This document shows positions 12,286 to 50,631 of a DNA stretch of 64,000 nt, one piece after another. The position numbers were made by a program, and so were the translations under genes. The DNA comes from a virus (lineage: Duplodnaviria; Caudoviricetes). Below the pieces are notes generated by a model. That model did no database searches. It had not been told where the DNA came from and saw only the letters and a list, made by a program, of their open reading frames with translations. The stretch lies in the IMG/VR virus record IMGVR_UViG_3300021254_000021, positions 160,001-224,000 of that record; one strand, written 5' to 3'. Every line of letters starts with the position of its first letter. Position 1 is the stretch's first letter.

Positions 12286-12810
12286 ATGCTTAAATTAAAG
12301 AGGGTATGTGAAGCAAAGCAGGTAGGTGACATCTACCATTATTGCACATTACAAATAGCTGTGAAATATATCATTCCTAATGATACTTTATCACCTTCTG
12401 GCAAGTGGCCAAACCGTTTAATCGGTTCATCCAATGTATTATCTTTTACTAGGGACAAGCGATATATTGTTGATATTCTTAGAAAAGATCCCATTCTTGT
12501 ACAGTTTAAGGTAGATGGTGACAAGGTATCGGAGAATCATAAAGTCTTTCCTTATAATGATTATTATGATCCTGATTATGATGTTCCCGAGTATGAAGAA
12601 GAATTGGAAAAAGAGGAAGTTGTAGTTGGCAAACTTTCCCCATTCTCAAACTTCATTAAGTCGATTAAGGTTATTTTAAACAAGCCTGTAAAAGATTTAA
12701 ACCCTCTATACATTCAGTCTATGCTTGAGGATATAGAGGATTATGCACAGTCTCATTCGATACCTTTAGAGATGGATAAGGAATTAAGAGAGATATTAGA
12801 GGAGGGGTAA
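12286..12810 (+). CDS. hypothetical protein with basic-Glu leader; paralogue of 20694
   Basis: MLKLKRVCEAKQVGDIYH...SFTRDK...VDGDKVSENHKVFPYND is nearly matched in 20694. Confidence 0.75.
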   Translation: MLKLKRVCEAKQVGDIYHYCTLQIAVKYIIPNDTLSPSGKWPNRLIGSSNVLSFTRDKRYIVDILRKDPILVQFKVDGDKVSENHKVFPYNDYYDPDYDVPEYEEELEKEEVVVGKLSPFSNFIKSIKVILNKPVKDLNPLYIQSMLEDIEDYAQSHSIPLEMDKELREILEEG

Positions 12811-12813
12811 TTT

Positions 12814-13983
12814 ATGGTTAAATTAAAGAGGGTGAATGAGAATCAGTTGGATTTATTTAGTTGGAAACCTAAAGGCGGTAATGCCGTAGATACCGTCTAT
12901 GATGGTTTATCTGATACGGATGATAAAGACTGGTTTAATGTCTCATATCTGTATAAAAAATATGGTGAGTATAATCGCAGATTTTTTAACTCTGCTTTAC
13001 CCGAGTTACCTTTGTATATAAAGACATACAAACACGCTTTGGGTGTCTGTATTTCATTAGGCAGTAAGTCAAGGAATGAAATCAATCTCAAAGAGATTTG
13101 TATTTCCAAACTTAAATTTAACAACAGATTCTCTATGGAGCAAGTCCTTGTCCATGAGATGTGTCATGCCTACCAGATTCATATATTGTGTGATAATTCC
13201 CTTACTCGATATTCTATGGATGCCAAACAGGGATCAGGTAGTCAGGGACACGGCCCATTATTCTTTAAAGCGGCTGATTTAGTGAATAACTCTCCAGAAA
13301 ATAAAGAAGGGTTTAAAATAACACAGTATAATGAGGATATTAACACGGCGCATAGAATAGGCGGTAAATCCACCTCTGGTTATTGCTATATTAAACCAAC
13401 CCTAGAAGGTCTTTTTGTCTATACCATAGCCGACACGCCATCTAATAAAGAGAATATAGACTATCTTAAACATTATGAGCCTGAGTATATGTACAGCTAT
13501 AAGGATGCAGAAGCAAAGAGTATCTGTACCACTCATTTTGGCCGTACCAAAGGTTATATTTATCCTTGGCAGAAAATCATAGAGAGTATTTGTAATAAAA
13601 TCATTAATGGAGATCTTATCCCTCTGGTAGAAGATAATAAATTAGAGAAAAAGTATATTATATACAAAGATGATGTTGTTTCGGTCTCTATGGTAGAGCC
13701 TTTTGGTAAAGAGATGAAAGAGGTGGTTATGAACAAGCCATATTCCATATTCCAGAACAGAATGAGTAATGAATGTACAATTCTATTAAAAGATAGAACT
13801 AATAAGGAAACCAAACGTTTTTTGGAAGGTGTAAAAATGGGTGTATTCTCTGGTGTAGAAGGAATATATAATAAGAATGAGTCTCTGTCTATTCAGGATG
13901 CTAGTGACATCATAGAGGATGCAGAAAATACGTTAGAGGTTAAAGAAATATCGGATGAGGTAGAGGAGATCATTATAGAATAA
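12814..13983 (+). CDS. SprT-like zinc metalloprotease with N-terminal QLDLF motif
   Basis: YNRRFFNSALP, LVHEMCH (HExxH) and downstream GHGPLF typical of the SprT family. Confidence 0.8.
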   Translation: MVKLKRVNENQLDLFSWKPKGGNAVDTVYDGLSDTDDKDWFNVSYLYKKYGEYNRRFFNSALPELPLYIKTYKHALGVCISLGSKSRNEINLKEICISKLKFNNRFSMEQVLVHEMCHAYQIHILCDNSLTRYSMDAKQGSGSQGHGPLFFKAADLVNNSPENKEGFKITQYNEDINTAHRIGGKSTSGYCYIKPTLEGLFVYTIADTPSNKENIDYLKHYEPEYMYSYKDAEAKSICTTHFGRTKGYIYPWQKIIESICNKIINGDLIPLVEDNKLEKKYIIYKDDVVSVSMVEPFGKEMKEVVMNKPYSIFQNRMSNECTILLKDRTNKETKRFLEGVKMGVFSGVEGIYNKNESLSIQDASDIIEDAENTLEVKEISDEVEEIIIE

Positions 13984-15247: not shown

Positions 15248-18200
15248 ATGGCTAGTACACCATACAAGCACTTTGTTCCACCTGTACCTTTAAATCCAGA
15301 CTATGACAAAAACTTTACCTATGTTTTAATAGAGACCTTAGACCAATTAAAAGACTCTTTTCAAAAAGGTGTAGTGATAGCGTGGGATACGGAAACAACA
15401 GGATTGAATCCTGTTGAGTCTGAGATAGTTGGATTTTCATACTCTTATGATGGACAGACAGGCTATTATTGCCCTGTAAAGCACTTTGATCTAGCTTTAG
15501 GAAAACCCGCATTAGACTTATTCTACCAAGCCTTAAAAGACGCCAAATTACAGCTCTTATATAATGCAAGATTTGATATTCGCATGATGGAGTATTCTGG
15601 CTATGATATGTCTTTTTTATATCCGAAAAACCCAGATACTAATTTGTCGCAAGCTGTTTTCATTGATGTAATGAATCAGGTATGGTTGGCAGATACCAAT
15701 ATTCCACTACCCTCATTAAAATCCTCTACCCTTCACTTTTTAGGCTATCAGCCACCAAAATTTTTAGAGACTTTGGGGGATGAGCAAAACTTTAAGTATG
15801 TACCCGCCAAAGATGCTTATCGTTATGCCTGTTTTACAGCAGATACGCTAATTCAGACTAAACATGGTCTTAAACAGATTAGTGAATTAAAGCCTAACGT
15901 AGATTTAATTAAAACATCTGATGGCTATCACCGACTCCTTAATGTTTTGGATCAAGGTGTGCAAAAGGTGATTAGAGTAAGCACACCTATTGGCACATCC
16001 TTTACCTGTACCCCAGACCATAAATTTGCAATGGAGATAGACCATTGTATTTGTTGGGTAGAGGCCAAAGATCTTGATAAAATCTCTTTTCATAAGAGGT
16101 ATTGTGGCGGGCAGTCTCTTTATGAAATAGAGAAATGCTACACACCGTCACCTATGGTAATGGATGACGGGAATGCGTGTAAAATAGAGTATGTGGATGA
16201 ACCACAACCCGTATTTGATCTTACTATTGAAGATGAGCATAATTTCTTTTTACAGTGTGGTTTAATAGCACATAACTGTCTGGATGCTATTAACACAATG
16301 AATCTGTTTAAAGTTACGTATCGCTTTTATAAAGAGTCTGGTAAAGCCGCACAGTTGGATAATGCCTGTGTGTACATTATTGGACAGTTGGAAAAAACAC
16401 CTCTTAATATTGACACCGATTACTTGGTAGATCTTAGGGATAAGGTTTATAGCCGTGTATTAGAACTAGAACAAGAGATTTATTCCATTGCGGGACATCC
16501 TTTTAAGATCGGTTCTAACAGAGAACTTACTTTAGTTTTCCAAGAACATGGAATTGATACGGGGGAGAGAACAAAAGCAGGGGATATGAAAACGGGGATA
16601 GAATTATTAAATATGTATCTTCGTAATCACCCAGAATGTACACTGTTAAAGCTACTAATAGAGTACAAAGAGCAATTCAAGTTCTACAACTCTTATCTTA
16701 AAACCCTTGTAGATATTGCCAAAAAGCAAGACACTGTTCCACCTAGATTCTCTTATAAATTACAATCTGTTCCTTGTTTGACAGAGAACAACTTGGTTTT
16801 AATTAGGGATAAAGGAATAACCTACATACCAGAGGTAAAGGAGCAAGACTATATCTGGACGCAGTATGGATATAAAAGAGTTTTATGGTGTAATAGCCAT
16901 AAAACAGAGGATGTTTACCGCGTTACTTTTGAAAATGCGGTATTTATAGAGGGTACTGCGCATCACCCAGTCTTAGTAAATAAAGGGACAGAGATAAATC
17001 CAGAGTTGGAGTGGGCTACTTTGGAATCATTAAAAGAAGGGGAGAGGGTAATATTTAATCATCATACTCCACCTTTGCAATACTCTGATGATCCTAAAGA
17101 AAAAGAGCTGTCTAAGTATTTAGAATATTTAGGTTATTTAATAGCCGTGAATATTGAGCCTAGCGTGCAATATCAGGTAGATTGGATTGAGACAAGGGAT
17201 GATTTGTTTAAACAGGCTTCTAACGAGTTTAGGCAAATGACTCATACAATCACGTCAAATCCCGGCTACCTGTTTGATTTAGTGATTAAATCTAAGCCAT
17301 ATCAGTGGATTCATTTCTTACAAGGAATCTTTTTCTCTGTATTTGAAACACCCGTAGCACAAACATGGAATAACTCTAATATGGATGAGTTTATTCTAAG
17401 ATCACAAACGCCTTTACTATTAACCTTCTTAATGAATATCCTTAGTTACTTGGGTATCCCAACATCCCTAGCCTATGATGATGATTCCTTCTTTATTATC
17501 TTTAATACATCGCAGTCTCTAACACTTTTAAAGACATTGATTATAACAGACTCTAACTCTCATTATCTCAAATCCTTATTCCAGAACTATAATCCATTCA
17601 ATTATTTTATAGAGTATGCTGATTCTAAGGTAAAAGCAAAAGAGAAAATGGAAGGGGAGCATACTGTCTATGATATTGAAGTAGAGGATGTGCATGAGTA
17701 TGTGGCCAATGGTATTGTCACACATAATACAGGCAGACTTGCTACTGGTAAAGATGGCAAGAATACCTACTTTGCACCAATTAACCTTCAATGCTTAGAA
17801 GAAAATACATTGATTAAAACGGAGCGTGGTAATATACCTATTAAAAATGTGACAGAGAAGGATCTTGTTTGGACAGGTACACGTTTTGTACCTTGTAAAC
17901 CATTAGGAAGTAAACAAAAAGAGTGCTTTAAAATAAAGACTTTATGGGGAGAGATTGAGGCTTCCTTAGAGCATAGATTTTTAACCATTAATATCTATGA
18001 CGACTATAAAATAGAGTGGCATACTCTAGCAGAATGTATTTCTCGTAAACTACCCTTAGTAAAAGATCCACAATCATTAGGTATTCAGTTTGACGATCTT
18101 TATAATCACCCCACGTATTCTGTCATAGGAAACCTAAGAAAAGAGTTAGACCTAGACCGTTATCGTAAAGTTGCCGAGTTTTACAAGTCTTATAAATTTG

Positions 18201-20626
18201 ACATTATCATAGAATGTCCGTGGCAATTCTGGAAACCTGATTTATACCCTTTCCCAGAATTAACAAAGACTGTCTATGACCTCTATGTTCCAGAGTATAA
18301 CCAGTTTACAGCTAATGGGTTTATTGTACATAATTCTTTGCCCAAGCCCAAGTCTATAAAGTGTTATGCCAGAAAAGCTACTCCCGAGGAAATAGAAAAT
18401 AAACAGGATGTATTAGGATGGATGTTTTCACCTAATCACCCTGAGTGGAGTCCCGGGAAAGTAGTAGAAGGAATGGATCAGAATCTTAATGTTAGAGCCG
18501 CATTTCTACCAGAACATCCAGAAAACGGAGATTATGTGGTGTCTTGCGATATGTGCTTAGAGGCGGGATCTCCTGTACAAACAAAACGTGGTTATTTAGG
18601 TATATCAGAATTAAAGGTTGGTGATGAAATATACTCGCCTCAAGGATGGGTGGAAGTTATTCGCGTAATGCAGACAGGTATAAAGAAACTCATTAAGGTA
18701 TTACCTGATAATGGTGGGCAAGCCCTTTATTGCACAGAGGATCATCATTTCCCTATTGATAGTAAAAAGATAGAAGCTAGGAATATTAAGGCTTCTTTAC
18801 CTTCTATTTCGTTTTATAGCTATAATGAAGAAATTGAAAAGCGTGGTTTGACTGAAGCAAAACTGTCTATGCTTAAAATGTGTAAGACACCCAAAGAAAA
18901 AGCAAATTATATAATAGCTAATAACCTAAAAGATTTCTTTATTTCATCCCTTCAAAAATATACTAGGGCAAACATAGCTCGATGGACAGGTACAAAAGTT
19001 TCGAGCTTTGGGCATATTTTAGACTACTTAGGTATTCATAAAACGAATAAGAGATATGCTTTTAAAGTAGATCGCTTTTATAACAATCCTTTCATAGATT
19101 CTAGTAATCCAACTTCAGCTTATCTGTTTGGTTATATTTTAGGTGATGGTAATATACATGAAAGAAAAAGTGGTATATCTACGTTAAATATTACTTCTAA
19201 AGATAAAGCACATCTCACACGTATCATGGAAATCTTTGGTAAAGATACAAAAATGCGTAAGCATAGTAGAGATGATAAAGAATGGTGGTCTATTGATATA
19301 ACAGATCAAGGTATTTGTAAACGTCTTAAAGAGTTAGGCATTAGTATGCGTAAGTCCACAGAACCTAGTTATGTAGATTTTACTTGGATTGGAGAGAACT
19401 TTAGACATTTTATTCGTGGTTTATTTGATTCAGATGGTTATGTTCGTATTAGTTCAGGTTTGGATTTAAGTTTTGTAGGACACGATTTATATATTAAGGA
19501 AATACAAAAAAGAATTGATGGAGATTGGGGATATAAATATACCCAATCCTTATCTTATTTATTTTTGCATGGTAGATTAGAACAAAAGAAGTTTATTCAT
19601 GCTTACTTATATCAAGGTGCAACTATTTGGTTACAAAGAAAACGAGATATTATAGAGCAATGGTATTTAGAACATTTTGGAGATATTATATGGCCTGTAT
19701 GGAATTGTACGGTAAATACACCAGAACACCTATATTATGCAAATGCTATATCTACTTCAAACTGCGGCGAGGAACTAAGAGTAGTAACAAATTTATTTAA
19801 AGAGGATTCTTGGGCTAGGATTATAAATTCTGGTGGAGATTTACATCATGCTAATTCTGATGCTATATATGGAGAAGAAAATTATACTAAAGAAACAAGG
19901 AAGAAAGCTAAAGGGGCAGCATTCGGAATGCTCTACGGCCAAGAATATAGAGGGTTTCAGCGTAAATTTCCCGATATGTCTTTAGATGAAGCAAAGGAAT
20001 TTATGATAAAGTTTAAACGTACAATACCACATATTGTACACGGTCAAGAGAGAATGATTAAAGAAGCAAGACGTACTGGGACATTTTATTCTGGTTTTGG
20101 TCGTCCGCGTAGAGTTAAACATTATCTAACATCACCTGATTATAAGGATGTAGCATTTGGTGAAAGAACGATCAAAAATGGCCCGATCCAAAGTACAGCC
20201 GCCGATGTTTTAAAGTTGGAATTAATAAGATTATGGGATAACCTATTTACCGTTTATCCAGAATACAAGTTTATTGTTACTATACATGACGAAATAGATG
20301 TTAGTATACCAAGACACCTAGCTAATGAGATTATCCCTAAGATGATTAGATGTATGACTGTACAAAGACCCTCTGATCTTGTACCTCTTGACTGTTCATT
20401 GAGTTGTGGCCCCACATTGGGTGCGCAATATGAAATGGTATATAACTTTGAGACAAAAGAATTTGAGCCCAAATGGGAAGAAGATAAACGTATAGAAACT
20501 CAAGAAAGTACACAAGAGGAAACAGAGAATAATGAATTGGATGAGGAAAAAGAGAATATAGATGATTCTATTTCTTATGAGGATGATTTAGTAGAGGAAG
20601 TAGATTCAAAGATGTTTGATTTTTAG
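15248..20626 (+). CDS. polA: family A DNA polymerase (3'-5' exonuclease + polymerase) with four inteins; about 741 aa after splicing
   Basis: ExoI WDTETTG; TGRL; motif A DM|CGEELR; motif B RKKAKGAAFGMLYG; PIQSTAAD; motif C IHDEI. Confidence 0.95.
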   Translation: MASTPYKHFVPPVPLNPDYDKNFTYVLIETLDQLKDSFQKGVVIAWDTETTGLNPVESEIVGFSYSYDGQTGYYCPVKHFDLALGKPALDLFYQALKDAKLQLLYNARFDIRMMEYSGYDMSFLYPKNPDTNLSQAVFIDVMNQVWLADTNIPLPSLKSSTLHFLGYQPPKFLETLGDEQNFKYVPAKDAYRYACFTADTLIQTKHGLKQISELKPNVDLIKTSDGYHRLLNVLDQGVQKVIRVSTPIGTSFTCTPDHKFAMEIDHCICWVEAKDLDKISFHKRYCGGQSLYEIEKCYTPSPMVMDDGNACKIEYVDEPQPVFDLTIEDEHNFFLQCGLIAHNCLDAINTMNLFKVTYRFYKESGKAAQLDNACVYIIGQLEKTPLNIDTDYLVDLRDKVYSRVLELEQEIYSIAGHPFKIGSNRELTLVFQEHGIDTGERTKAGDMKTGIELLNMYLRNHPECTLLKLLIEYKEQFKFYNSYLKTLVDIAKKQDTVPPRFSYKLQSVPCLTENNLVLIRDKGITYIPEVKEQDYIWTQYGYKRVLWCNSHKTEDVYRVTFENAVFIEGTAHHPVLVNKGTEINPELEWATLESLKEGERVIFNHHTPPLQYSDDPKEKELSKYLEYLGYLIAVNIEPSVQYQVDWIETRDDLFKQASNEFRQMTHTITSNPGYLFDLVIKSKPYQWIHFLQGIFFSVFETPVAQTWNNSNMDEFILRSQTPLLLTFLMNILSYLGIPTSLAYDDDSFFIIFNTSQSLTLLKTLIITDSNSHYLKSLFQNYNPFNYFIEYADSKVKAKEKMEGEHTVYDIEVEDVHEYVANGIVTHNTGRLATGKDGKNTYFAPINLQCLEENTLIKTERGNIPIKNVTEKDLVWTGTRFVPCKPLGSKQKECFKIKTLWGEIEASLEHRFLTINIYDDYKIEWHTLAECISRKLPLVKDPQSLGIQFDDLYNHPTYSVIGNLRKELDLDRYRKVAEFYKSYKFDIIIECPWQFWKPDLYPFPELTKTVYDLYVPEYNQFTANGFIVHNSLPKPKSIKCYARKATPEEIENKQDVLGWMFSPNHPEWSPGKVVEGMDQNLNVRAAFLPEHPENGDYVVSCDMCLEAGSPVQTKRGYLGISELKVGDEIYSPQGWVEVIRVMQTGIKKLIKVLPDNGGQALYCTEDHHFPIDSKKIEARNIKASLPSISFYSYNEEIEKRGLTEAKLSMLKMCKTPKEKANYIIANNLKDFFISSLQKYTRANIARWTGTKVSSFGHILDYLGIHKTNKRYAFKVDRFYNNPFIDSSNPTSAYLFGYILGDGNIHERKSGISTLNITSKDKAHLTRIMEIFGKDTKMRKHSRDDKEWWSIDITDQGICKRLKELGISMRKSTEPSYVDFTWIGENFRHFIRGLFDSDGYVRISSGLDLSFVGHDLYIKEIQKRIDGDWGYKYTQSLSYLFLHGRLEQKKFIHAYLYQGATIWLQRKRDIIEQWYLEHFGDIIWPVWNCTVNTPEHLYYANAISTSNCGEELRVVTNLFKEDSWARIINSGGDLHHANSDAIYGEENYTKETRKKAKGAAFGMLYGQEYRGFQRKFPDMSLDEAKEFMIKFKRTIPHIVHGQERMIKEARRTGTFYSGFGRPRRVKHYLTSPDYKDVAFGERTIKNGPIQSTAADVLKLELIRLWDNLFTVYPEYKFIVTIHDEIDVSIPRHLANEIIPKMIRCMTVQRPSDLVPLDCSLSCGPTLGAQYEMVYNFETKEFEPKWEEDKRIETQESTQEETENNELDEEKENIDDSISYEDDLVEEVDSKMFDF
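15830..16276 (+). mobile_element. mini-intein 1 (149 aa) in the ExoIII motif
   Basis: YA|CFTADT...CTPDHKF...LIAHN|C. Confidence 0.9.
16775..17728 (+). mobile_element. intein 2 (318 aa), apparently degenerate LAGLIDADG
   Basis: VP|CLTENN...GTAHHP...IVTHN|TGRL; LGYLIAVN and FLQGIFFS lack the usual DG. Confidence 0.9.
17792..18334 (+). mobile_element. mini-intein 3 (181 aa)
   Basis: NLQ|CLEENT...SLEHRF...FIVHN|S. Confidence 0.9.
18554..19762 (+). mobile_element. intein 4 (403 aa) with LAGLIDADG homing endonuclease, inserted in polymerase motif A
   Basis: CDM|CLEAGS...CTEDHHF...FGYILGDG...FIRGLFDSDG...ISTSN|CGEELR. Confidence 0.9.
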
Positions 20627-20646: not shown

Positions 20647-20682
20647 AAAAGCCTATCTATGTTCACGATAGGCTTTTCTTTT
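20647..20682 (+). terminator. intrinsic terminator
   Basis: AAAAGCCTATC...GATAGGCTTTTCTTTT after polA. Confidence 0.7.
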
Positions 20683-20693: not shown

Positions 20694-21596
20694 ATGGTTA
20701 CGTTAAAGAAATATGTCACAGAGGCAAAACAGGTAGGAACAATTTATCATGTTTGCTCTTTATCCGATTTGGAATACCTCATTCCTAAAGACACTTTATC
20801 CAGTTCGGGCTCATACTATAATAAGCTGTTAAAGACAGATAAAGCTATCTCTTTTACCAGAGATAAGAATTTCTTTGTCGATGTACCTAATATAGCCAAT
20901 GCACCTATTCATGTGCAGTTAGTTGTAGATGGGGACAAGCTATCCGAGAATTACAAAGTCACTCCATACAATGACTTTTATACAAGGGGTGATTCAGACC
21001 CTAATGTGTATGCGCCTAAGTCACCTAATAAAATAGACCCGATGTATTTAGAAAAAGAAGAAGCTGTTATTGGCCCGATTAAGAAGTTTTCTAATTACCT
21101 AAAGTCTATAAAGGTTATTGTTAAATCCCTGCCTTATAAAGAGTTGGATGATATTCAATATATCATTGAGGATTTAATATCATACACTACTAAGAATAAC
21201 ATTCCTGTGGAGTTGGAGATAAAGGATTCCTCACTAAAAGGAAAAATTAAGAGCTTGAATGACATTCTCTCTTACAACCCGTATGATCTCACATCTATTA
21301 CGGATATAGAGGATGCTATCATACCTTTATTCCAAAAGGTAAAAGACCCAACCTCTTTTAAGAAGTTGTCTGACTATATCCACTCCCTACTTACTAATGG
21401 AATAACATTAACCTATAAGTCACCTATAACCAATAAAAAGAGCAAGAATGCAGATATAGATTTATTAAAGGATGATTTAGAATCCGTGGATTATCAAATA
21501 AACCAGTGTGAGACGTATATAGGTAGTAATGTTCTCACAGTAGCATTTAGACTGCGTGGTTACTCTGATTATGGGTATATGGAAATCCTTTTGTAA
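20694..21596 (+). CDS. hypothetical protein with basic-Glu leader; paralogue of 12286
   Basis: MVTLKKYVTEAKQVGTIYH; shared SFTRDK and VDGDKLSEN blocks. Confidence 0.75.
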   Translation: MVTLKKYVTEAKQVGTIYHVCSLSDLEYLIPKDTLSSSGSYYNKLLKTDKAISFTRDKNFFVDVPNIANAPIHVQLVVDGDKLSENYKVTPYNDFYTRGDSDPNVYAPKSPNKIDPMYLEKEEAVIGPIKKFSNYLKSIKVIVKSLPYKELDDIQYIIEDLISYTTKNNIPVELEIKDSSLKGKIKSLNDILSYNPYDLTSITDIEDAIIPLFQKVKDPTSFKKLSDYIHSLLTNGITLTYKSPITNKKSKNADIDLLKDDLESVDYQINQCETYIGSNVLTVAFRLRGYSDYGYMEILL

Positions 21597-22388: not shown

Positions 22389-22670
22389 ATGAATCGTGAA
22401 GATGATCTTAAGAACCTGTGGAAAGAATTACGCGAAATCTCTGAGGCCAAAGATGATGCCGAGGATAAAGCAGAGGAAGCCCCTGCCCCCAAAGAGACAG
22501 TAGAACTGGATGCTTTACTGTCTCGCTTAGAGGATATTGTTTCCCGCTTAGAAGAAGCATACGGGAAAAAAGACGATAAGAAAGAGGATAAAGAAGAATC
22601 TAAAGATGAAAAGAAAGAAGAGGAATATGTTCCCCGTCGCATTCGTCGCCCATTAAGAGGGAGAGAATAA
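22389..22670 (+). CDS. small highly charged protein, candidate prohead core/internal peptide
   Basis: AGGAG SD; Glu/Lys-rich; several xxE-A sites. Confidence 0.5.
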   Translation: MNREDDLKNLWKELREISEAKDDAEDKAEEAPAPKETVELDALLSRLEDIVSRLEEAYGKKDDKKEDKEESKDEKKEEEYVPRRIRRPLRGRE

Positions 22671-22672
22671 TT

Positions 22673-23401
22673 ATGATTAGGAATGAGGCAATACAGAAAA
22701 CTGCATTAACTAATGCCGTTTGGGATGTGGTTAGAACACATCTTAGTGGAGTTTTGCCTTTCCCTGATGGTGAAGATTCTTTCATCTTTAAAGCCACTTA
22801 CTTTAAGTTTAAACCCGAGGAAATGGACATAGCTCTTGGTGCGGATGTAAAGGTAACTGTGGATGATTCCTCAATTACCCTTTATATCAACCGTAACTGT
22901 GATCCTAATGGTGGTTTTTCTCAAGTAATGGTTGAACCTGTCTCGCCAGAAAATCCTTTTGCCAAAGCTATTATAAACGTTTTAAACGTAATAGTAGAGG
23001 AAATACAAAAGCATGGTAAAGACTGGTGCAGAATAGGGAATTACAAAGCTCTCGTAATTCAGTCACCTTACATAGACAGACTAAAGGCTTTCTGTATGCA
23101 GAATCCCGATGTCAAAATCCCAATGGTAGCAAATGATCAATTATCCGCTGTTAAGGATGATTCCCCAGAGGTTTTGAGAACATTGAATGCCATGAATGGT
23201 GAGTCTTTACCAGAAGCTAAGGTGGATAAAATTAACGCGGAAATCCCTGATGGTGTTAAGCCACGTGTTAGAAAAGTTGCACCTGATAAGCCTATGTCAG
23301 ATCGCCAAAAGAAAAGACAGTTAAATAAACTTTTAGCGGTGGGTATTGGTGGTGGTAAAGATAAACCTAAACCGAGTAACCCTCGCGTTAGAAGGGGATA
23401 A
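22673..23401 (+). CDS. hypothetical protein (leader MIRNE-A)
   Basis: ORF with SD; basic C-terminus. Confidence 0.65.
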   Translation: MIRNEAIQKTALTNAVWDVVRTHLSGVLPFPDGEDSFIFKATYFKFKPEEMDIALGADVKVTVDDSSITLYINRNCDPNGGFSQVMVEPVSPENPFAKAIINVLNVIVEEIQKHGKDWCRIGNYKALVIQSPYIDRLKAFCMQNPDVKIPMVANDQLSAVKDDSPEVLRTLNAMNGESLPEAKVDKINAEIPDGVKPRVRKVAPDKPMSDRQKKRQLNKLLAVGIGGGKDKPKPSNPRVRRG

Positions 23402-26396: not shown

Positions 26397-28016
26397 ATGA
26401 GAAAGTTGAAATGTGAAGCAATTAAGGGTGATGCTCAATCTTTACAGCCAATGATTGACGCACTTAAAGAGAATCCATCCAGAATAAAAGAGCCGGGCGC
26501 ACAGCCAATAAACTCTGATATATCAGATGTCGTAATTAACTTTCTGAATGAGTGTTGCTCTTTTGATGGTATCGAATTTCAAAATGCTATGGGTGTATTT
26601 GGCCGTAGCACAACAGGCAGACGTTTATTTGATTCCTTATCCTCTTTGGATATTGTATGGTATTTAAATAATGAGCCTTTAAGTAATAAAGGTTGGCGGG
26701 AAATGATTAACACTAAACTTGCCCAACCAAAACCTCGTTATTTTGAAGTTGAGATGCCTGCTATGCTACGCTTCAACGTTAAAGGCTATACAATTGTCGA
26801 ATATACAGGTACATTTAAAGTTAGTGGTTCACCAAGACAGCCTGATAAAACAATGTATGGGTTGACATTTAAAATTAACATGACTTTAAAATATGCACAG
26901 GCTGATGATTTCTGGACAAAACTAAACCCACCCTCTGATGATTATTATAGTGGGCTTGATATGGATGATGAACAATACACAAAAGAGTATAGCAAGGTTA
27001 CCCATGTTCCATTCACCTCTTTATTCAAAGATGGCAAGGATGTAGATTTATTTAGAAGTGTTAATAAATCATTTAAGGCAGATACATTAGCCTCATTAGT
27101 TCTATTGGCAAATGGGAAATCTTTAATTAACGGCGATAAAGGCGTAAGAGGAGAGGGCAAAAAAACGGATATTTGGTTTAGCCAGACCCACTCTTATACC
27201 AGAGTTGAAGTGGAAGGGTTTGTTGTCTATGATGGTAAAAAAGATGATTGCCCAGAACGTCCAAGACTAATGAATTTAATTAAGGATGAGGTAAACTCAT
27301 TGCCAGAGGCAGACTCATATTTATCTGCTGAATATGATATTCAAGTTTTTGTCTATGATAGTGATGATGATTTATCCTATAAGCAGATGGCAACATTAAA
27401 AATGACAAAGATTAAGAATACTTATTGTGGTACAATTATAAATGAAAAGCAGATGATTCCTGTTTCCAAACCAAAAATGATGGACTTTGAAAGATTGGAA
27501 CGTGACAATACCATAGTCAAAGATATTCAAAAAGACTTTGTAGATGATTTAGAAGTAAAAGATACGCTAGGTGTGGACACAAGAGATCCATTCTTTTCAG
27601 ACCATATTCTTAGCTTCATTCGTTCCTCTAAAGACTCCATTCTTAGTGATGCCACATTAACTCGTGACTTCATTCTCTCTGGTTATTTAGAGGAAACAAG
27701 ATACGATCTTTTCCGTATTAAGACATTGAAGGATATTCCTGTATGGAATGATTTTCTGGATGAATTAGAGAAGTATGATTATAAAGCCTCTACAACAGAG
27801 GAGTTTGTATTTGATCTTAGCTTTAGTGTTATGCTGAAAACATTAAAAGGAAAAGAGGAAATACTGCAATATCACGGCACATTGTCTTTAGAGCTTGAAA
27901 GCCCGATTAGAACACACGTAAGAATCTCTATGAAGTCAAGGAAAACAAATACAGATATTCCGCGTGATTATTTACCAAAACCTTTGGTAAATCGCTATTC
28001 CAACTTAGATTTTTAA
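26397..28016 (+). CDS. large hypothetical protein (leader MRKLKCE-A)
   Basis: ATG 26397 with AGGAGG SD. Confidence 0.7.
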   Translation: MRKLKCEAIKGDAQSLQPMIDALKENPSRIKEPGAQPINSDISDVVINFLNECCSFDGIEFQNAMGVFGRSTTGRRLFDSLSSLDIVWYLNNEPLSNKGWREMINTKLAQPKPRYFEVEMPAMLRFNVKGYTIVEYTGTFKVSGSPRQPDKTMYGLTFKINMTLKYAQADDFWTKLNPPSDDYYSGLDMDDEQYTKEYSKVTHVPFTSLFKDGKDVDLFRSVNKSFKADTLASLVLLANGKSLINGDKGVRGEGKKTDIWFSQTHSYTRVEVEGFVVYDGKKDDCPERPRLMNLIKDEVNSLPEADSYLSAEYDIQVFVYDSDDDLSYKQMATLKMTKIKNTYCGTIINEKQMIPVSKPKMMDFERLERDNTIVKDIQKDFVDDLEVKDTLGVDTRDPFFSDHILSFIRSSKDSILSDATLTRDFILSGYLEETRYDLFRIKTLKDIPVWNDFLDELEKYDYKASTTEEFVFDLSFSVMLKTLKGKEEILQYHGTLSLELESPIRTHVRISMKSRKTNTDIPRDYLPKPLVNRYSNLDF

Positions 28017-28034: not shown

Positions 28035-29717
28035 ATGCGTATAAGAAAAGAATCGCTATCACAAAAGTTGGATTTATCTGCTTTTGAAAACATATTTACA
28101 GATCCATTAACCTTTAATGTTAAAGACTCCCATTTCTCTGGACAGGAAGTAGTAACCAACCTTATTTCTCATTATGGAGCTTTATCAGGTGGGAACTATT
28201 GTGTATTTGAACAGGGACATTGGGGTCAAGGATCTGTTAGTACAATATCGGATAAATCCCGTCTATCAGAAGGACTTTCCGATCTTTCTGTACAGTCAGC
28301 AATAGAATGTGGGGCTTATTCTTTAATGACATTAGAAGGTGACACACTTGTCAATGGTGATTCCCTTTCATTATCTTTGAGAAAACCCGTAGCCCGCATT
28401 GAGGATGAAATAACAGAGATTACACATACCACACACGCATTCTATGATTTGGAAATGAGTATTTTTACTAAGGACAAAACCAAAGTATTTACTTGTCTTA
28501 ATGAAGTAGAAATATCGCTTAGTGGTGATGATTACAAAGTACAGGTAACTAATAAAAATAAGAAACGTTTAAATCAGGATAAATTAGATCGTTATTCCTC
28601 TTTGGATATGAGGGACGAACCACCTATCCAAAGAGATAAACACCTTCCAGACGATAAACGTTTTGACGATTTAGACATTCCACAGAGAAAGAAAAGAGTG
28701 CCTAAACCTAAAGATGGTTATATGATGAATCCTGCTGATCTTAAAGGTAATGACCCAACCATAGCCAATAGAATTAGAAATTTGGATATGAATAGGTATT
28801 CCCGAAAGAATGAAGAAGAATTAAAACTTATTCAACAGCAAGACATTTCAACAGATACCGTTTTAGGACAGAACCTTGCAAAGACGGCTACGCAGAAATT
28901 AGGGAAACAGAATATTGCTACACAACAGCAAGTCTCCCCTTCTATTCAAAAGCAAGCCGATAAAATGTCCTATGCACAGGCTTATGAATATGTCAATGAT
29001 GTAAATAAGGCTTGGGAAGATGCAGATCCATATAATCAATTTGCCGATACCATAAAACTTGTAGATCAATGGTATAAACAGGATTCAGCAACACTTATAA
29101 ATGATTCTCTAATGGGTGCTTTTAAGTATATAGATGATCTTTATAAAGCCTCTGAATTAGCCCGTAAAATAAGTAAATTAGAGGATGATATATCCAAGAC
29201 AAAATCACGCTCTGAATTAACTAAGTTAAAAAAAGAGCTTGTACAAGTTAGAAAAGAGTTTGATGATACAATGAGTCTTATTACTGCGGGCAGAGGTAAA
29301 ATTTCACAAGGTAAAGAAACATTGGATGCCTCTGCTTCTAAACTTGAAGCGAGTTTAGAAGAATACCTAGATGATTATATGAGCAATAATGCCTTGTGGA
29401 AAACAGTTAAAGGTAAAATGGAAAAGATGGCTAAACAGGTAGAGATGATGGAAGCATTAAAGAATAAGTATGCTTCTAACTTAGATCTACCGCCTCTTTT
29501 GTACAGGTACAAGGATTTAATGGCTACACCTACGCCGTCGATTATAGACATAGAGAGCTTAAAGATAAATGATGTCGATGTGCTTTATAAGGCTTGGTAT
29601 GCTGATATGATGCAGTATCGTAAAACACTTGAGAGTTTTAATGATTCATTCCAAGCTAATTATGATGCTTTAGCCAGAATACTAGGTGTTAAAGCAAAGA
29701 CACGTTCCCTATTCTAA
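28035..29717 (+). CDS. large hypothetical protein with coiled-coil C-terminal half (leader MRIRKE-S)
   Basis: AGGAG SD; helical heptad-like C-terminal region. Confidence 0.7.
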   Translation: MRIRKESLSQKLDLSAFENIFTDPLTFNVKDSHFSGQEVVTNLISHYGALSGGNYCVFEQGHWGQGSVSTISDKSRLSEGLSDLSVQSAIECGAYSLMTLEGDTLVNGDSLSLSLRKPVARIEDEITEITHTTHAFYDLEMSIFTKDKTKVFTCLNEVEISLSGDDYKVQVTNKNKKRLNQDKLDRYSSLDMRDEPPIQRDKHLPDDKRFDDLDIPQRKKRVPKPKDGYMMNPADLKGNDPTIANRIRNLDMNRYSRKNEEELKLIQQQDISTDTVLGQNLAKTATQKLGKQNIATQQQVSPSIQKQADKMSYAQAYEYVNDVNKAWEDADPYNQFADTIKLVDQWYKQDSATLINDSLMGAFKYIDDLYKASELARKISKLEDDISKTKSRSELTKLKKELVQVRKEFDDTMSLITAGRGKISQGKETLDASASKLEASLEEYLDDYMSNNALWKTVKGKMEKMAKQVEMMEALKNKYASNLDLPPLLYRYKDLMATPTPSIIDIESLKINDVDVLYKAWYADMMQYRKTLESFNDSFQANYDALARILGVKAKTRSLF

Positions 29718-34391: not shown

Positions 34392-34542
34392 TTTTAATCC
34401 TTTTTACTTTAAATTATATGCTTTGAGTGCCTTAGTAGGAACAACTAAAGTATCATAGTCTCTATAATTTAGATTAATCTAACACTTACTATAAAAGTAA
34501 GAAAGGATATTAGGCAGGAAATTGTTAGTGACCTCCACATTT

Positions 34543-34616
34543 TCTGGTTTAGTTCAGTGGTAGAACGCCCACTAGACTTGTAGTGAGAGACATCGGTTCG
34601 ATTCCGATATCCGGAG
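34543..34616 (+). ncRNA. tRNA-like RNA with atypical anticodon arm
   Basis: normal D arm (GTTCAGTGGTAGAAC) and T arm (ATCGGTTCGATTCCGAT); CACTA/TAGTG stem closes a 6-nt loop. Confidence 0.6.
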
Positions 34617-34730
34617 TTACCAATCTTCACCTAATTAATTTAGGTCTGTAAAGCACGCGAATAATTAACTAGTTAATTATTCTATAAAGTGCAAAAAGAA
34701 GGGAAGTAGGAATGCAGTGACCTACTATTT

Positions 34731-34807
34731 AGCGGTGTAGCAGAATAGGTTCATGCGGTGGCCTTATAAGCCATGTCATTATGTGGGTTCAACCCCCACC
34801 ACCGCTA
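34731..34807 (+). tRNA. tRNA-Ile(TAT)
   Basis: AGCGGTG/CACCGCT acceptor; GTGGC-CTTATAA-GCCAT. Confidence 0.8.
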
Positions 34808-34885
34808 TTGCCGTTGGGATACGACATGTCCGATTTTTGAGGACTAAATAACCCCGATAGCCTGTGTCGTTAAACAGGCATTTAT

Positions 34886-34971
34886 GGGCGTGTAGTTTAA
34901 TATGGTAAAACAACTCTCGCGAGGAATATAGAAATATATTCGTAGAAATAGGTTCGAGTCCTGTCACGTCC
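34886..34971 (+). ncRNA. tRNA-like RNA with anticodon arm replaced by two short hairpins
   Basis: GGGCGTG/CACGTCC acceptor, D arm, T arm ATAGGTTCGAGTCCTGT; centre CTCGCGAG + GAATATA-GAAA-TATATTC. Confidence 0.6.
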
Positions 34972-34982
34972 CAAGCATCTTA

Positions 34983-35082
34983 TGGGCTGTAGTTTAAAAT
35001 ATGGTAACAGAACACTGATGAGATAGTCACTTTAGATTAATCTAAGGGATCAGAGGTCTTGGGTTCAAATCCCGGCAGTCAG
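34983..35082 (+). ncRNA. tRNA-like RNA with expanded anticodon loop
   Basis: D-like arm, CTGAT/ATCAG stem enclosing ~29 nt with an internal hairpin, T arm GGGTTCAAATCCC. Confidence 0.55.
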
Positions 35083-35232
35083 ATTTTTCTATGTATGGTA
35101 GAAAAACGTAGAGTGGAAGAGGGGCTTCGTTAATTCCCCTTTCAAGCAATCGAATTATTTATAGATTGAGATCTCCTATAAGTAATTGCGGATTGTAATA
35201 AGTAACTAAGACCATACAACTTAGTTACTTTT

Positions 35233-35545
35233 GCCAGTGTGGCGAAATTGGTAGTACGCAGCGGACTTGGTTATTTGAGCCGTATATCGGGAAACTATAT
35301 ACGGGATGTGGGCTAATTCGGTGAAAGTCTTAGCAAGTAAAGTTGAAGATAACGCCGAGCTAAATCAGGATTTAATATTCTGTAAATGTGTAGAGAACAT
35401 ATACCCACAACCTAAACACTTAATAGTGCATGGTTAAGACATGTTCCAGACTACAACCCTTATAATAAGGGGCTATGGAAACATAGAGTAGTAAGAAAAT
35501 CCGCTTCCCTTTACGGGAGTGTGAGTTCGAGTCTCACCACTGGTA
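35233..35545 (+). tRNA. tRNA-Leu(TAA) interrupted by a group I intron
   Basis: exon 1 35233-35268 ends GCGGACTT; exon 2 from 35496 begins AAAATCCGC; spliced loop CTTAAAA. Confidence 0.9.
35269..35495 (+). ncRNA. group I self-splicing intron (227 nt, no ORF)
   Basis: follows U, ends in G; P3 TGTGGG/CCCACA, P4 TTCGGTG/CGCCGAG, P7 GAACAT/ATGTTC. Confidence 0.9.
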
Positions 35546-35631
35546 TTAGAGAAGAAATAAATAGTGTAAAAACTATTTATAAAACCCAGAGTATGATTGG
35601 CTTGCCGAACACAGCTCTGGTCTTCTCTTTT

Positions 35632-35719
35632 AGAAGGTTGGCCGAGTGGTCTAAGGCGCACGACTGGAAATCGTGTAAACCCCTAAAGGGTTTCGTGGGT
35701 TCAAATCCCACACCTTCTG
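35632..35719 (+). tRNA. tRNA-Ser(GGA)
   Basis: AGAAGGT/ACCTTCT; CACGA-CTGGAAA-TCGTG; long variable arm. Confidence 0.9.
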
Positions 35720-36053
35720 TTTAGCTTTGTTTAGCACTTTGGGTGCAATATTCCTTAGAGGAATGACAAAGCTATTTTTGTTTTATGTCCTGTTGTTCTT
35801 TTTCGTTAGATCATGGTCTTGCATGATCATAGGCAGACACACCTCATAACTTGTAATGAGGTTTTAGAAATACATTTTAATGTATGTGTAGTAAGGGCGT
35901 ATATGCCTTCCTATTCCGTATGTGATGTCTTTGTAGCACTCATCACAGCTCCTAATACAAGTGGAAAGCCCCAAGTAATACCGTTATTATTTGGGGCTTT
36001 TTCGTATATCTATTAAGGTGTTATTTATTCCTTTTAGCATAAGGATATTTATT

Positions 36054-39036: not shown

Positions 39037-39387
39037 TTACCCAACCTCTATATAACCATCCTCTTTAATCAAATTTATCACAGCACTCGCCACACGAGAA
39101 GGGTGGGAATTAAGCTCAATAAATGTCTCATTGAGCCAGTCATGATCTTCCTCACTCCTAATCAGAATGTCCCTATGATCCGTATTATAACTAATACTAA
39201 TCCCATAGACATCCGACATCTTAAACTCTACCCATAAACCATATACCGTATAACAGACATAAAAATCCTTTTCATCTATGTCCAAGTCTTTCATAATACG
39301 GGCATTGATCGCTTCCGCCATACTGTGTATAGCACTCACCGCATTATTATTTCTATCCCCTTCAATAGATTCTTTTATCGCTCTCAT
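39037..39387 (-). CDS. hypothetical protein (leader MRAIKE-S)
   Basis: GAGG SD; closed by the bidirectional terminator. Confidence 0.7.
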   Translation of the reverse strand: MRAIKESIEGDRNNNAVSAIHSMAEAINARIMKDLDIDEKDFYVCYTVYGLWVEFKMSDVYGISISYNTDHRDILIRSEEDHDWLNETFIELNSHPSRVASAVINLIKEDGYIEVG

Positions 39388-40227: not shown

Positions 40228-40746
40228 ATGGTTAAGTTAAGAAGATGCAATGAGGCACAATTAAGCCTTTTTGATAAACCCCTACCCTTAGATTTACATC
40301 ATAATAATACCGAGGTAGAACCCGAGGTAACACAGGTAGAAGAACCAGAGACAAATAATAAGGTGTATTCAAGAGAATATGCTAACAGAGCTAAACAGTT
40401 AAGAACATTAAAAGGACAGGAATTATTAGATGCTGTCGAAGAAGGGGATATATTCTGGGGCAGATGGGGTTATAACCGCACTATAACAAACTGGTTTATC
40501 GTTAAACGTAAAACAGCAAAAAGAATCATTTTACATGAGATAGATTATACTTATGGTAATCAGCCGGGAGATAGTATAGGTGGTTGGACAACGTGCCCAC
40601 TTTTACCCCCTAAAGAGATAAGTGGTAAAAGAGATATGCAGGGTATTCCCCTACCAGAAAACAGGTATGCACAAATTCAAATACCCGACTATCCTAAATC
40701 ATTAACAGTCTGGGATGGTACATACGGTTGGGAAAACATGGATTAA
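40228..40746 (+). CDS. hypothetical protein with basic-Glu leader and QLSLF motif
   Basis: MVKLRRCNEAQLSLF; AGGAG SD. Confidence 0.75.
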   Translation: MVKLRRCNEAQLSLFDKPLPLDLHHNNTEVEPEVTQVEEPETNNKVYSREYANRAKQLRTLKGQELLDAVEEGDIFWGRWGYNRTITNWFIVKRKTAKRIILHEIDYTYGNQPGDSIGGWTTCPLLPPKEISGKRDMQGIPLPENRYAQIQIPDYPKSLTVWDGTYGWENMD

Positions 40747-40758: not shown

Positions 40759-41079
40759 ATGAGAGTCTTAAAAAGAGTAAAAGAATCCAATAAAGATTCT
40801 GAAACACTGTCTCTAATGAAAGAAATAGAGAAGTATAAAGGATTGGTAAAAGACTGGGAATATACAGCTCTTAATGGCCGTACATGGGGGAGACTATCAT
40901 ATAGATATTCCGATTTAGAACAGGCTTATTCTGATTTACACCGTATTCTAAGGAAAGCAGAGGATTTAAACATAGATTATTCTCTTAGAGACGAAATAGG
41001 GGATATGATAAATTCGGTTGAGGATCTGATAGGGGAGAATGATCCCCACAGGTTCGACGATGATTACGAATATGATTAG
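40759..41079 (+). CDS. hypothetical protein with basic-Glu leader
   Basis: MRVLKRVKES; AGGAG SD. Confidence 0.7.
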   Translation: MRVLKRVKESNKDSETLSLMKEIEKYKGLVKDWEYTALNGRTWGRLSYRYSDLEQAYSDLHRILRKAEDLNIDYSLRDEIGDMINSVEDLIGENDPHRFDDDYEYD

Positions 41080-46143: not shown

Positions 46144-46677
46144 ATGAGTAAAGACACAGAGATATTAGGGTTCTGCCCAGGCTTTTGTTTTGGTACAATC
46201 TTAATGCGTAGTTCCCATGAGGGATTCTATTATAATTCTATTAAAGAGATTCTTAAAAAAAGAAGGTTTTATCTGGTTACTGTGGGGGATGAGGAAGATG
46301 AGGAAACATTCTTTATTAAAGGCAGGGAGTTATTTACCCTTTACTTTGTACCTCAAGGCTATCAGATACTTAGAGGATCTGATTTGGAGCGAGAGATACA
46401 GGAACAGATGAGCGAGGAGGATTCATCCAATTTTCATCACGTGTTTGGCTGTTCCAACTTCTACAGCACACACTTTCGGGATTTAACTATTGGTGTGCCC
46501 TACAGGTATATCAACGAGATACCCAATACATTTACGTCTTTGCAGGAATGTGTGGAATCTATCAAACCCCTAGGAAAAGAGATAAGGATTTATTGTTTAC
46601 ATACATCCAATAAGCCTTATAGCCTAGAGGAGATAATCCATTATGGTCACACTGCGACGAATAACAGAGAAGAATGA
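46144..46677 (+). CDS. hypothetical protein; paralogue of 59415
   Basis: shared FGTILMR, GDEEDEETFFIKGREL, HTSNKPYSLEE. Confidence 0.75.
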   Translation: MSKDTEILGFCPGFCFGTILMRSSHEGFYYNSIKEILKKRRFYLVTVGDEEDEETFFIKGRELFTLYFVPQGYQILRGSDLEREIQEQMSEEDSSNFHHVFGCSNFYSTHFRDLTIGVPYRYINEIPNTFTSLQECVESIKPLGKEIRIYCLHTSNKPYSLEEIIHYGHTATNNREE

Positions 46678-47491
46678 TTCTTTACTGACAATGCAATCAG
46701 CCGATCCTTATACCTTATGGCAACAGTCAAAGAATAAATTATCCCAGACCAAACTTATTCCTCTATCCTCTTTAGGGTTAAGGGATGTCCGAGTAAGAGA
46801 TCCACATTCTTTAGACACTCTTTATATAAATGAAGGGGATGCTACTAAGATAAAAGATACCATAGAGGAAGTGAGAGAGAAGCAGAATGATGCTTTAACT
46901 TTATTAACCATAGCTAGGGAGATAGATCATTCCATTGAAGAACCGAGTGCATATAAGGTGGATGCTTCTGGTCTTTTTACTAAGTCTCAAAATGATCTTA
47001 TGATCTTTATCCCTAGCTATATTGCACAAGGTCTAAAAGATTTAAAGAAGCAATTACAAGATAAAGGAATAAGATTAAACATAAATATTGTTTCCCATAA
47101 CAATCAGTCTTTAAATAAGCTCTATCATATAGAGGCTTCGACAAAGGTTTCCATTCTTAAACTATCCCTTAAGTATAATAAAAAGAATTATACCAATAAG
47201 GATGTCACCTCAATCCAAGACCTAAAGACTTTCTTAATAGATGCTGTATCGAACAATCCCGAGGCTGTACAGATCATTAAGAACTTTGACTTCACCAAAC
47301 CTATGCCAAAAGCACAACAGGCCAGAACGGTGGATGGTATTCTTTATTATTCCTTAGCGCCTATGGCTAACAGGGCTCATAAGATAGGACAGTTAGATTT
47401 CTCTTACTCTAATGGGAAGGTGAATATTGTACCAACTGCAACCGTCCAATACAGATACAGATTTAATGATGGAGAGCTGATAGAAGGATAA
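46643..47491 (+). CDS. hypothetical protein with basic-Glu leader
   Basis: MVTLRRITEK; GAGGAG SD. Confidence 0.7.
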   Translation: MVTLRRITEKNDSLLTMQSADPYTLWQQSKNKLSQTKLIPLSSLGLRDVRVRDPHSLDTLYINEGDATKIKDTIEEVREKQNDALTLLTIAREIDHSIEEPSAYKVDASGLFTKSQNDLMIFIPSYIAQGLKDLKKQLQDKGIRLNINIVSHNNQSLNKLYHIEASTKVSILKLSLKYNKKNYTNKDVTSIQDLKTFLIDAVSNNPEAVQIIKNFDFTKPMPKAQQARTVDGILYYSLAPMANRAHKIGQLDFSYSNGKVNIVPTATVQYRYRFNDGELIEG

Positions 47492-50028: not shown

Positions 50029-50133
50029 CATGATATGAACTAAGAAAAAGCCCTCTATAAAAGAGGGCTTTTTCTTTTCCCAAATCCCCCTCAGATCAAC
50101 TTTACAAAAATCTTTTACCAAGGAGACTGTCTT

Positions 50134-50631
50134 ATGTCCTATTACAACAGAGAATTAGATTGTGCTTTACGTCGTTACAAACAGAGCAAGGCAAATATTA
50201 AAGACCTTTATTATAGAGAGCTATTAACCTTTAAGAAGGATTACACCCAACAAAATAAAGTGGAGAGATGGGAAAGTCTGTATGATATAATTCTACTAAG
50301 CTATGAGGAAACAAGGAATAAGAAATCAGATGTTTTCTTATTCCTTGTCTCACGTTTTCCAGATGGTGCAGATGGTTATTCCTTTGTAATGACACACCAA
50401 GACCAGATTGTAGGTAGCCTGTCTTTATTTGGCATTAAAGATTTTCAGTTTGTCTATGCTGATTGTAGTTCCGTGTTTGCAGACTATGGAGTCAGCCTTT
50501 CTTTTCTGCATACAGAATTTGTATCTAATTATGGGGTGCTAGGTAAAGGAAAGGTAACTTTGGAAGATGGAGTGATACAGATTCATGGTGAAGTTAATAC
50601 GGAAAACATACTTGGAGGCCAAAAAGCCTGA
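50134..50631 (+). CDS. hypothetical protein
   Basis: preceded by 49-bp element and AGGAG. Confidence 0.7.
   Translation: MSYYNRELDCALRRYKQSKANIKDLYYRELLTFKKDYTQQNKVERWESLYDIILLSYEETRNKKSDVFLFLVSRFPDGADGYSFVMTHQDQIVGSLSLFGIKDFQFVYADCSSVFADYGVSLSFLHTEFVSNYGVLGKGKVTLEDGVIQIHGEVNTENILGGQKA

Follow-up and report, generated by a model that had tools for sequence, protein, structure and literature searches.

Why would a phage place nearly the same few residues at the start of many proteins that otherwise have nothing in common? The question is raised by a 64,000-nucleotide stretch of DNA (hereafter the window), bases 160001-224000 of the 252,372-bp linear IMG/VR virus record IMGVR_UViG_3300021254_000021 (G000:C1), which represents an uncultured jumbo phage and in which 11 proteins had been predicted to share a basic N-terminal leader ending in Glu. 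In this report we analysed this leader in the window and in the whole record, which has 36% G+C and an estimated completeness of 94% and is coded almost entirely on the + strand, with strong Shine-Dalgarno sites being typical. The gene set was the 316 open reading frames (ORFs) from a simple gene call over the whole genome, and the relatives compared were the IMG/VR loci L016 and L017; coordinates are those of the window unless marked as genome coordinates. Our answer, to which we assign a probability of roughly 70%, is that the leader would be a basic, lineage-specific variant of the propeptide that in T4 directs proteins to the capsid and is removed by the gp21 protease.

The first result is that the leader is genuine and extends well beyond the window. 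All 11 N-termini were found, every one of them an ATG preceded by a Shine-Dalgarno-like site, and for 12286, 26397, and 39387 the leader ATG is a preferable start to that of a longer ORF, with orthologues likewise starting at the leader Met. The consensus, M-hydrophobic-K-L-basic-basic-hydrophobic-x-E, spans 7-11 residues with a net charge of +3 to +4, and the residue behind the Glu (P1') is mostly A, S, or N. Genome-wide, a strict regular expression (^M[VLI][KTV]L[KRVLI][KRH]) matches 19 called N-termini where 0.055 are expected from composition, with a Glu at residue 7-11 in 19/19 and no match after an internal Met; a six-frame search with the same expression adds only three ATG-started ORFs, all of 24 codons or fewer. 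A leave-one-out position-specific scoring matrix (PSSM), set against a background of 1,568 ORFs from other phage loci, recovers 19 proteins at no expected false positive and 24 at ~3 expected. There is also a short class (^MR..KE), present in 5/316 ORFs here and in 3/1568 in the other phage loci, which is an 8-fold enrichment (p = 0.005). The genome total of leader proteins is ~24-29 (8-9% of ORFs), or about one in ten. Their genes are dispersed over the whole 252-kb genome, which bears out the scatter first seen in the window, and the leader is on none of the recognised replication, nucleotide-metabolism, and packaging enzymes (PolA, NrdD, NrdG, and terminase).

The bodies behind the leader are unrelated, apart from the single paralogue pair in the window (12286/20694) that had already been pointed out. 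BLASTP with the first 12 residues removed links only 4 of 36 candidates, which form one four-member family including that pair, and no leader protein has a leaderless paralogue. Conservation of the leader is at the protein level: synonymous variation between genes is found at every leader codon (GTA/GTT/GTG/GTC, AAA/AAG, TTA/CTA/CTG, and AGA/CGT/CGA/AGG), and therefore selection acts on the peptide. In both AlphaFold2 (AF2) models, those of the 12286 and 26397 proteins, the leader is predicted to be disordered.

What supports the capsid-targeting and head-protease reading of the original prediction is the presence of a gp21-family protease and a gp23-family capsid protein, a Glu boundary kept in three body families, and an upstream element, TATCTA, shared with structural genes. 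The head genes lie outside the window, with the portal gene at genome 15151-16764 (PHROG portal, 6e-32). The protease gene, at genome 50210-51442 (L006:14610-15839), encodes a match to Pfam Peptidase_S77 (PF03420; 1.8e-13, 50.9 bits against a cut-off of 27) and to the PHROG head maturation protease (1.2e-40), with 29% identity to T4 gp21 by BLASTP (E 7e-13). Its catalytic residues are kept: the His of GGHPE and the Ser of GISAR align with the two Ala residues of the inactive T4 structure 5jbl. At 410 aa the protein is twice as long as T4 gp21, with a C-terminal extension of ~200 residues that is rich in coiled coil, contains several E-S sites, and gives a DivIC-like match below the Pfam cut-off. 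The scaffold may be fused to the protease in this extension; we identified no gp22-like gene that stands alone. The capsid protein (genome 51446-52891) matches Pfam Gp23 (4e-37) from residue 72, and its first 42 residues contain three hydrophobic-x-E sites, YLLE-A, PMDE-A, and KVLE-N. The part that aligns with gp23 begins at residue 55, so that ~45 aa form an N-terminal extension, and the T4 maturation point falls at about residue 43-46. Just after the portal gene, in the position of T4 gp67/gp68, is an acidic 164-aa ORF (genome 17676-18170) with a leader-like start and 7 E-[AS] sites, five times the genome rate.

Proteases of the gp21 family cut after Glu in T4, phiKZ, 201phi2-1, and SPN3US (PMC5694885), and the internal proteins of T4, as well as Alt and gp24, have propeptides of 10-20 residues that serve as capsid targeting sequences (CTS) (PMC5694885; PMC3012670). 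Read from NC_000866, the T4 propeptides include MAKINELLRE-S in gp24, MLKEQLIAE-A in gp22, MEGLIE-A in gp67, and MKTYQEFIAE in two genes (ipII/ipIII), which have an identical 30-nt leader-coding stretch. A search for a gp24-like vertex paralogue found none. Apart from the major capsid protein (MCP) itself, there is one capsid-like fragment of ~120 residues (1384-1737), which is embedded in an unrelated, chimeric ORF (1105-2325) and shares 27% identity with MCP residues 317-439.

Two body families are informative about the boundary between leader and body. The first is the four-member family (12286-12810 and 20694-21596 in the window, L004:7530-8042, and L006:13601-14536 elsewhere), whose bodies are predicted to have an ADP-ribosyltransferase (ART) fold. 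The AF2 model of the 12286 protein has a predicted local distance difference test (pLDDT) score of 88 and a predicted template modelling score (pTM) of 0.84; VIA-align matches it to Tpt1 with a Z of 11.1 (root-mean-square deviation 2.5 over 112 residues) and to DarT with Z of 10.6, 9.4, and 8.9, most of the 50 structural matches listed are named ART-superfamily proteins, and Foldseek places the same families at the top, with E of 1e-3 to 0.1. Residues Y17-H18, F54, R56, S82, and E110 are invariant and may form an H-Y/F-E type site, with which they are compatible; the family has no Pfam match. It is common in large phages that have not been cultured, in many cases with ankyrin repeats fused at the C-terminal end. 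In the window, 12286..12810 (+; 174 aa, PSSM 24.4) has a strict leader followed, right behind the Glu, by a body starting AKQVG, and its paralogue 20694..21596 (+; 300 aa) has a strict leader of 10 aa, an extra C-terminal part, and a TATCTA hairpin 40 nt upstream. The second family is represented by 12814..13983 (+; 389 aa, PSSM 24.7), a SprT-like zinc protease (Pfam 3e-9, 37.1 bits against a cut-off of 25.6) whose HExxH motif (HEMCH) is at residue 114 and whose strict leader is directly followed by QLDLF. A related pentapeptide, QLSLF, is directly behind the leader Glu of 40228..40746 (+; 172 aa), a strict leader protein that has the top PSSM score (27.7) and a TATCTA at -60. The two copies of QL[SD]LF in these leader proteins, which span residues 11-15 in each case (12844-12858 and 40258-40272) and begin one residue past the Glu, are the only ones in the proteome, where 0.11 are expected; because of this position, cleavage of the leader would leave the motif at the new N terminus. 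We take QL[SD]LF to be a putative sliding-clamp-binding site, as it matches the bacterial β-clamp pentapeptide consensus (Dalrymple et al. 2001).

Comparison with other phages, the evidence on which we rely most, indicates that the boundary stays in place while the leader changes. Public data contain 139 homologues of the ART-fold proteins, many of them encoded on contigs 150-255 kb long; in all 120 listed, a Glu-ended extension immediately precedes AKQVGxxYH, and the boundary Glu is invariant in a 66-sequence alignment. The extension itself follows the lineage: it is MVKL-basic in the relatives of this phage, a 20-28-residue LEKRL..LEKLL.NE in a second lineage (a 204-kb phage), MIKLIDLL.E in many environmental phages, and in others MKSFKQYFLE, which closely resembles the T4 CTS. 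For the SprT-like protein, orthologues in lineage A retain both the leader and QLDLF, and two homologues in lineage B start with the lineage-B leader. The Glu boundary is kept across relatives in three body families in all, with a different leader dialect in another lineage for the ART-fold and SprT-like ones. In other phages the local leader is also on unrelated neighbouring ORFs: over 41 non-redundant loci, 36 ORFs share at least 5/9 N-terminal residues with the local ART protein, compared with 3.5 expected from foreign dialects. Dialects of the LEKRL..LEKLL, MIKL-x-D-LL-x-E, and MSLKKIKKI types are seen on runs of unrelated adjacent ORFs at L018, L059, L060, L069, L038, and L087.

Conservation of the leader is equally marked where the bodies diverge. 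A 739-aa leader protein encoded at genome 46168, just upstream of the protease, keeps its leader in homologues from 13 separate 50%-identity clusters, which are alignable only over the C-terminal ~250 residues, their N-terminal halves being otherwise unalignable except for the leader. Nine orthologues of the 26397 protein, down to 39% identity, retain M-[RQ]-x(2-4)-[KCF]-E followed by A-[IL]-x-G, and one of them has the short MRIKKE form, which links the long and short leader classes. In the syntenic locus L016, whose portal protein is 83% identical, the slot after the endolysin gene (L016:3422-4952, corresponding to genome 9310-10730) is occupied by two leader genes whose bodies are unrelated to the two of this phage and whose flanking genes are conserved. 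This denotes turnover of cassettes behind a constant tag, and turnover of the same kind is seen at the internal-protein loci of T4 (PMC3012670). An S77 protease is encoded by three of the four long leader-bearing contigs tested, the fourth being only 66% complete. By these sequence comparisons, the leader is a protein-level feature that is portable between unrelated bodies and between lineages and is lineage-specific in form. One of the three short ORFs added by the six-frame search, a 17-codon ORF at genome 55952 (L007:2852-2905), encodes a peptide identical to the leader of ART-family homologues in relatives, and appears to be what remains of the 5' end of a cargo gene that has decayed.

A further link between leader genes and virion genes comes from the hexamer TATCTA. 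On the coding strand, 47 of its 104 copies are 20-100 nt upstream of genes, intervals that make up 9.4% of the genome, compared with 9 of 97 copies on the other strand. Genes with a copy upstream include those for the portal, head-tail adaptor, sheath, tube, tape measure, and endolysin, as well as 15/33 leader genes versus 34/283 others (p = 1e-5), and the hexamer is frequently in or beside a terminator-like hairpin. Copies in the window are at 20654, 22335, 39439 (-), 40168, and 50522. We consider TATCTA a probable late promoter element. The leader gene at genome 49201 has it upstream and is directly followed by the protease and capsid genes, and so appears to head a protease-capsid operon.

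These results have to be weighed against other explanations for a shared N terminus. The leader might be a recognition tag for some other phage or host factor, such as a RiPP-like (ribosomally synthesized and post-translationally modified peptide) modifying enzyme, a chaperone, an unfoldase or degradation system, or a non-capsid sorting system, with no relation to the head protease. Shared N-terminal tags on unrelated phage proteins can indeed have other partners, and several leader genes are far from the head module; this is the foremost of the alternatives, and we judge it unlikely. The genome lacks a SPASM domain, and NrdG, the activase next to NrdD, is its sole radical-SAM (S-adenosylmethionine) protein; on inspection the leader shows no hydrophobic core, and therefore is not a Sec/Tat, lipoprotein, or other secretion signal. 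Moreover, the terminal Glu, which is the invariant feature of all the dialects, corresponds to the P1 residue of S77 proteases, such a protease is encoded on dialect contigs, and enrichment of an element common to structural and lysis genes fits virion assembly.

Slightly less probable still, in our judgement, is that the leader is a propeptide with no targeting role, keeping harmful enzymes inactive until maturation, or conversely a tag that binds the scaffold and stays on the protein. ART-fold enzymes and a zinc protease could harm the cell that produces them, and the fact that QL[SD]LF becomes N-terminal only after cutting in 12814 and 40228 hints at activation by cleavage. However, a disordered tag of 7-11 residues is an improbable inhibitor of many different folds, and positions 2-6 are conserved far from the scissile bond, suggesting a binding function beyond the cleavage site. 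What also counts against both versions of this explanation is that the equivalent 10-aa peptide of T4 is sufficient for targeting and is cleaved as well (PMC5694885, PMC3012670). Finally, a feature of the mRNA (A-rich early codons or a downstream box, AAA/AGA-rich codons after ATG being able to raise expression) or a recombination hot spot (the identical ipII/ipIII stretch may promote cassette exchange in T4), neither involving a peptide signal, is very improbable given the synonymous variation together with the conserved Glu and following small residue, the quite different non-basic dialects that other lineages have at the same position of homologous proteins, and a k-mer search that found no common nucleotide element overlapping the start codon, only TATCTA upstream.

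Several observations nevertheless weigh against a capsid-targeting propeptide. First, the leader proteins of this uncultured phage are predictions from genome sequence. Second, the resemblance to T4 has limits. The leader here is basic (+3 to +4) whereas the T4 CTS is acidic or neutral, and it cannot be aligned to MKTYQEFIAE, with which it shares only the hydrophobic spacing and the terminal Glu, and therefore it would work like a CTS without belonging to the same sequence family. P3 is hydrophobic (V, C, I, L, or Y) in just 14/19 strict leaders, and in the short MR..KE forms it is basic, contrary to the L/I-x-E rule of T4. Third, some leader genes are in the tail module (65314, 65832, and 69579) or among replication genes, away from the head genes, roughly half of the leader genes lack TATCTA, and that this hexamer marks late transcription is itself something we infer. 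Fourth, cultured phages offer little: the first 50 kb of Bacillus phage vB_BceM-HSE3, the nearest cultured relative by capsid protein, has at most one similar N terminus and no array, tblastn found no match to the ART-fold family in cultured phages, and these searches turned up no relative for which virion proteomics exists. The single HSE3 candidate is an 88-aa ORF (L101:13195-13461) starting MKFRRINE-D.

If the leader is indeed a capsid-targeting propeptide, the sequence of events that we infer, from late timing through docking partner, cleavage, and packaging to injection, would be as follows. Some 24-29 mostly unrelated proteins would be made late in infection, and their N-terminal tags of 7-11 residues would dock them as cargo to the assembling scaffold or core, probably by electrostatic attraction to acidic core proteins or to the coiled-coil tail of the protease. 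The cargo would then be enclosed as the gp23-like shell forms, and the gp21-family (S77) protease would cut after the Glu, so that the mature proteins would start at the next residue, for example with AKQVG, NQLDLF, or AQLSLF. The trimmed proteins would finally be expelled with the DNA and act as early host effectors, including the four ART-fold enzymes and the SprT-like zinc protease. We offer a more general scheme only tentatively, since we think it more doubtful than probable: phages of the T4 superfamily would use distinct leader dialects that co-evolve with the scaffold and protease of each lineage, and for effector families such as the ART-fold and SprT-like ones the exchange of ~10 N-terminal residues would be enough to cross from one lineage to another. 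Here the basic dialect would label about a tenth of the proteome as injected cargo, the clamp-binding-like QLxLF would be freed at the N terminus by the head-protease cut, and the capsid would be at once the delivery vehicle and the activation chamber for host-takeover enzymes.

Should capsid targeting be borne out, the leader would turn a mostly unannotated genome into a list of ~25 proteins that enter the host with the DNA. Such proteins would open host takeover and counter-defence, a first wave that is otherwise very difficult to predict when a phage has not been cultured, and the list would hold the four ART-fold enzymes, the SprT-like protease, and the two proteins with the clamp-binding-like motif. 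Re-tagged body families would show how T4-type phages exchange injected effectors. Engineered capsids have already been loaded with foreign proteins by means of the T4 CTS, and for the same purpose the dialects would provide further short tags, which may be orthogonal to one another.

Comparison with known systems shows both similarities and differences. In T4, the propeptides of IPII/IPIII (MKTYQEFIAE), IPI, Alt, gp24, gp22, gp67, and gp68 are all removed by gp21 (Mullaney and Black 1996; PMC3012670; PMC5694885), and T4 packages, trims, and injects Alt, an ADP-ribosyltransferase (PMC5512222), a type of cargo that the ART-fold proteins here fit. As with the T4 CTS, the leader is a peptide of ~10 residues at the extreme N terminus of otherwise unrelated proteins, ending in Glu and followed by a small residue; the two phages also have in common a gp21-family protease, a gp23-family capsid protein, cassette turnover, and an ART-fold cargo. 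The closest likeness in detail is to the gp24 propeptide, with hydrophobic residues at positions 2, 4, and 7, Lys at position 3, and the terminal Glu. The main differences are that ~24-29 proteins are tagged here rather than a handful, that their genes are dispersed, that the length varies from 7 to 11 residues, that there is a second, short MR..KE form, and that P3 is often Val or Cys instead of Leu or Ile; the present system is also known from genes alone. We found no description in the literature of leader arrays of this kind outside T-even phages.

Other parallels are more distant. The jumbo phages phiKZ, 201phi2-1, and SPN3US also process many of their internal head proteins, some of which are ejected, with a protease related to gp21 (gp175/gp245) that cleaves behind the Glu of S/A/G-x-E or A-x-E (PMC5694885, PMC7411985, PMC10052503). 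However, their propeptides are mostly long (79-127 residues) with no shared short consensus and a small P3 (Ala, Ser, or Gly), and their capsid proteins are very distant from gp23, whereas here a gp23-family capsid protein is combined with a short common tag. Polyvalent proteins and other co-injected effectors are likewise predicted early effectors delivered with the DNA (Iyer et al. 2017, PMC5512222), and there is overlap in domains (ART, zincin-like metallopeptidase, and a weak Zeta-toxin-like match below the Pfam cut-off), but in polyvalent proteins many domains are joined in one polypeptide, often with a MuF anchor, whereas here separate genes each carry their own short tag. Encapsulin cargo-loading peptides are similarly short, portable, and disordered and send unrelated enzymes into an HK97-fold shell; unlike the leader, they are usually C-terminal, are not removed, and bind the shell protein itself, in a cellular nanocompartment rather than a virion.

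The strength of the individual assignments in the window is uneven, and three of the 11 original members are marginal. Eight are robust (12286, 12814, 20694, 26397, 40228, 40759, 46643, and 50585). Besides the four described above, these are 26397..28016 (+; 539 aa, PSSM 12.1), which has an MR-type leader of 7 aa; 40759..41079 (+; 106 aa, PSSM 13.6), a leader protein with an acidic body; 46643..47491 (+; 282 aa, PSSM 14.0), with a strict leader; and 50585..51601 (+; 338 aa, PSSM 10.8), which has the longest leader (11 aa, ending YLE-A) and a TATCTA at -63. No fold could be assigned to the body of the 26397 protein: its AF2 model (pLDDT 75, pTM 0.35), in which residues 1-7 are disordered, gave no credible Foldseek match (probabilities of at most 0.33, TM scores of at most 0.2), and the ESM Atlas had no usable match. 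Two members are plausible on the basis of the short-class enrichment, both with a short MR..KE-S leader: 28035..29717 (+; 560 aa), with no family match in Pfam or PHROG and only noise-level scores (0.80) in the ESM Atlas, and 39037..39387 (-; 116 aa), with a TATCTA at -52 on its own strand. The remaining candidate, 22673..23401 (+; 242 aa, starting MIRNE-A), is weak, as its PSSM score of -4.3 is within the chance range, it has no orthologue in L017, and it has no Pfam or PHROG match. Overall, Pfam and PHROG scans of the leader bodies returned almost nothing except SprT-like, ankyrin, and DUF3293 matches, the other bodies being orphans. Outside the window, one leader protein has ankyrin repeats, with a best Pfam score just below the cut-off, and a weak short-class candidate combines DUF3293 with a Zeta-toxin-like match below the cut-off.

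A highly charged peptide just upstream of the weak candidate, 22389..22670 (+; 93 aa, TATCTA at -54), had been proposed to be a core protein. It is conserved in L017 (75% identity), is rich in both acidic (E+D 34%) and basic (K+R 25%) residues, and has four E-[AS] sites; on the other side, it has no leader of the shared type and no Pfam family above the cut-off, and its gene is outside the head module and distant from the head genes. A role as a core or internal protein is therefore weakly supported, and the acidic ORF after the portal is the better candidate for a core protein.

As to the wider setting, a nucleotide search with 18 kb of the window found no match among GenBank phages, and an IMG/VR scan anchored on a single protein, the MCP, returned one distant locus only. 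Two further features of the window are worth recording. The PolA mentioned above, which lacks the leader, is a family-A DNA polymerase of 1792 aa (15248-20626) interrupted by intein elements (Pfam Intein_splicing, Hint_2, Vint, and LAGLIDADG_3). Six tRNA genes, for Tyr-GTA, Arg-TCT, Val-GAC, Ile-TAT, Arg-GCG, and Ser-GGA, are clustered at 34089-35720.

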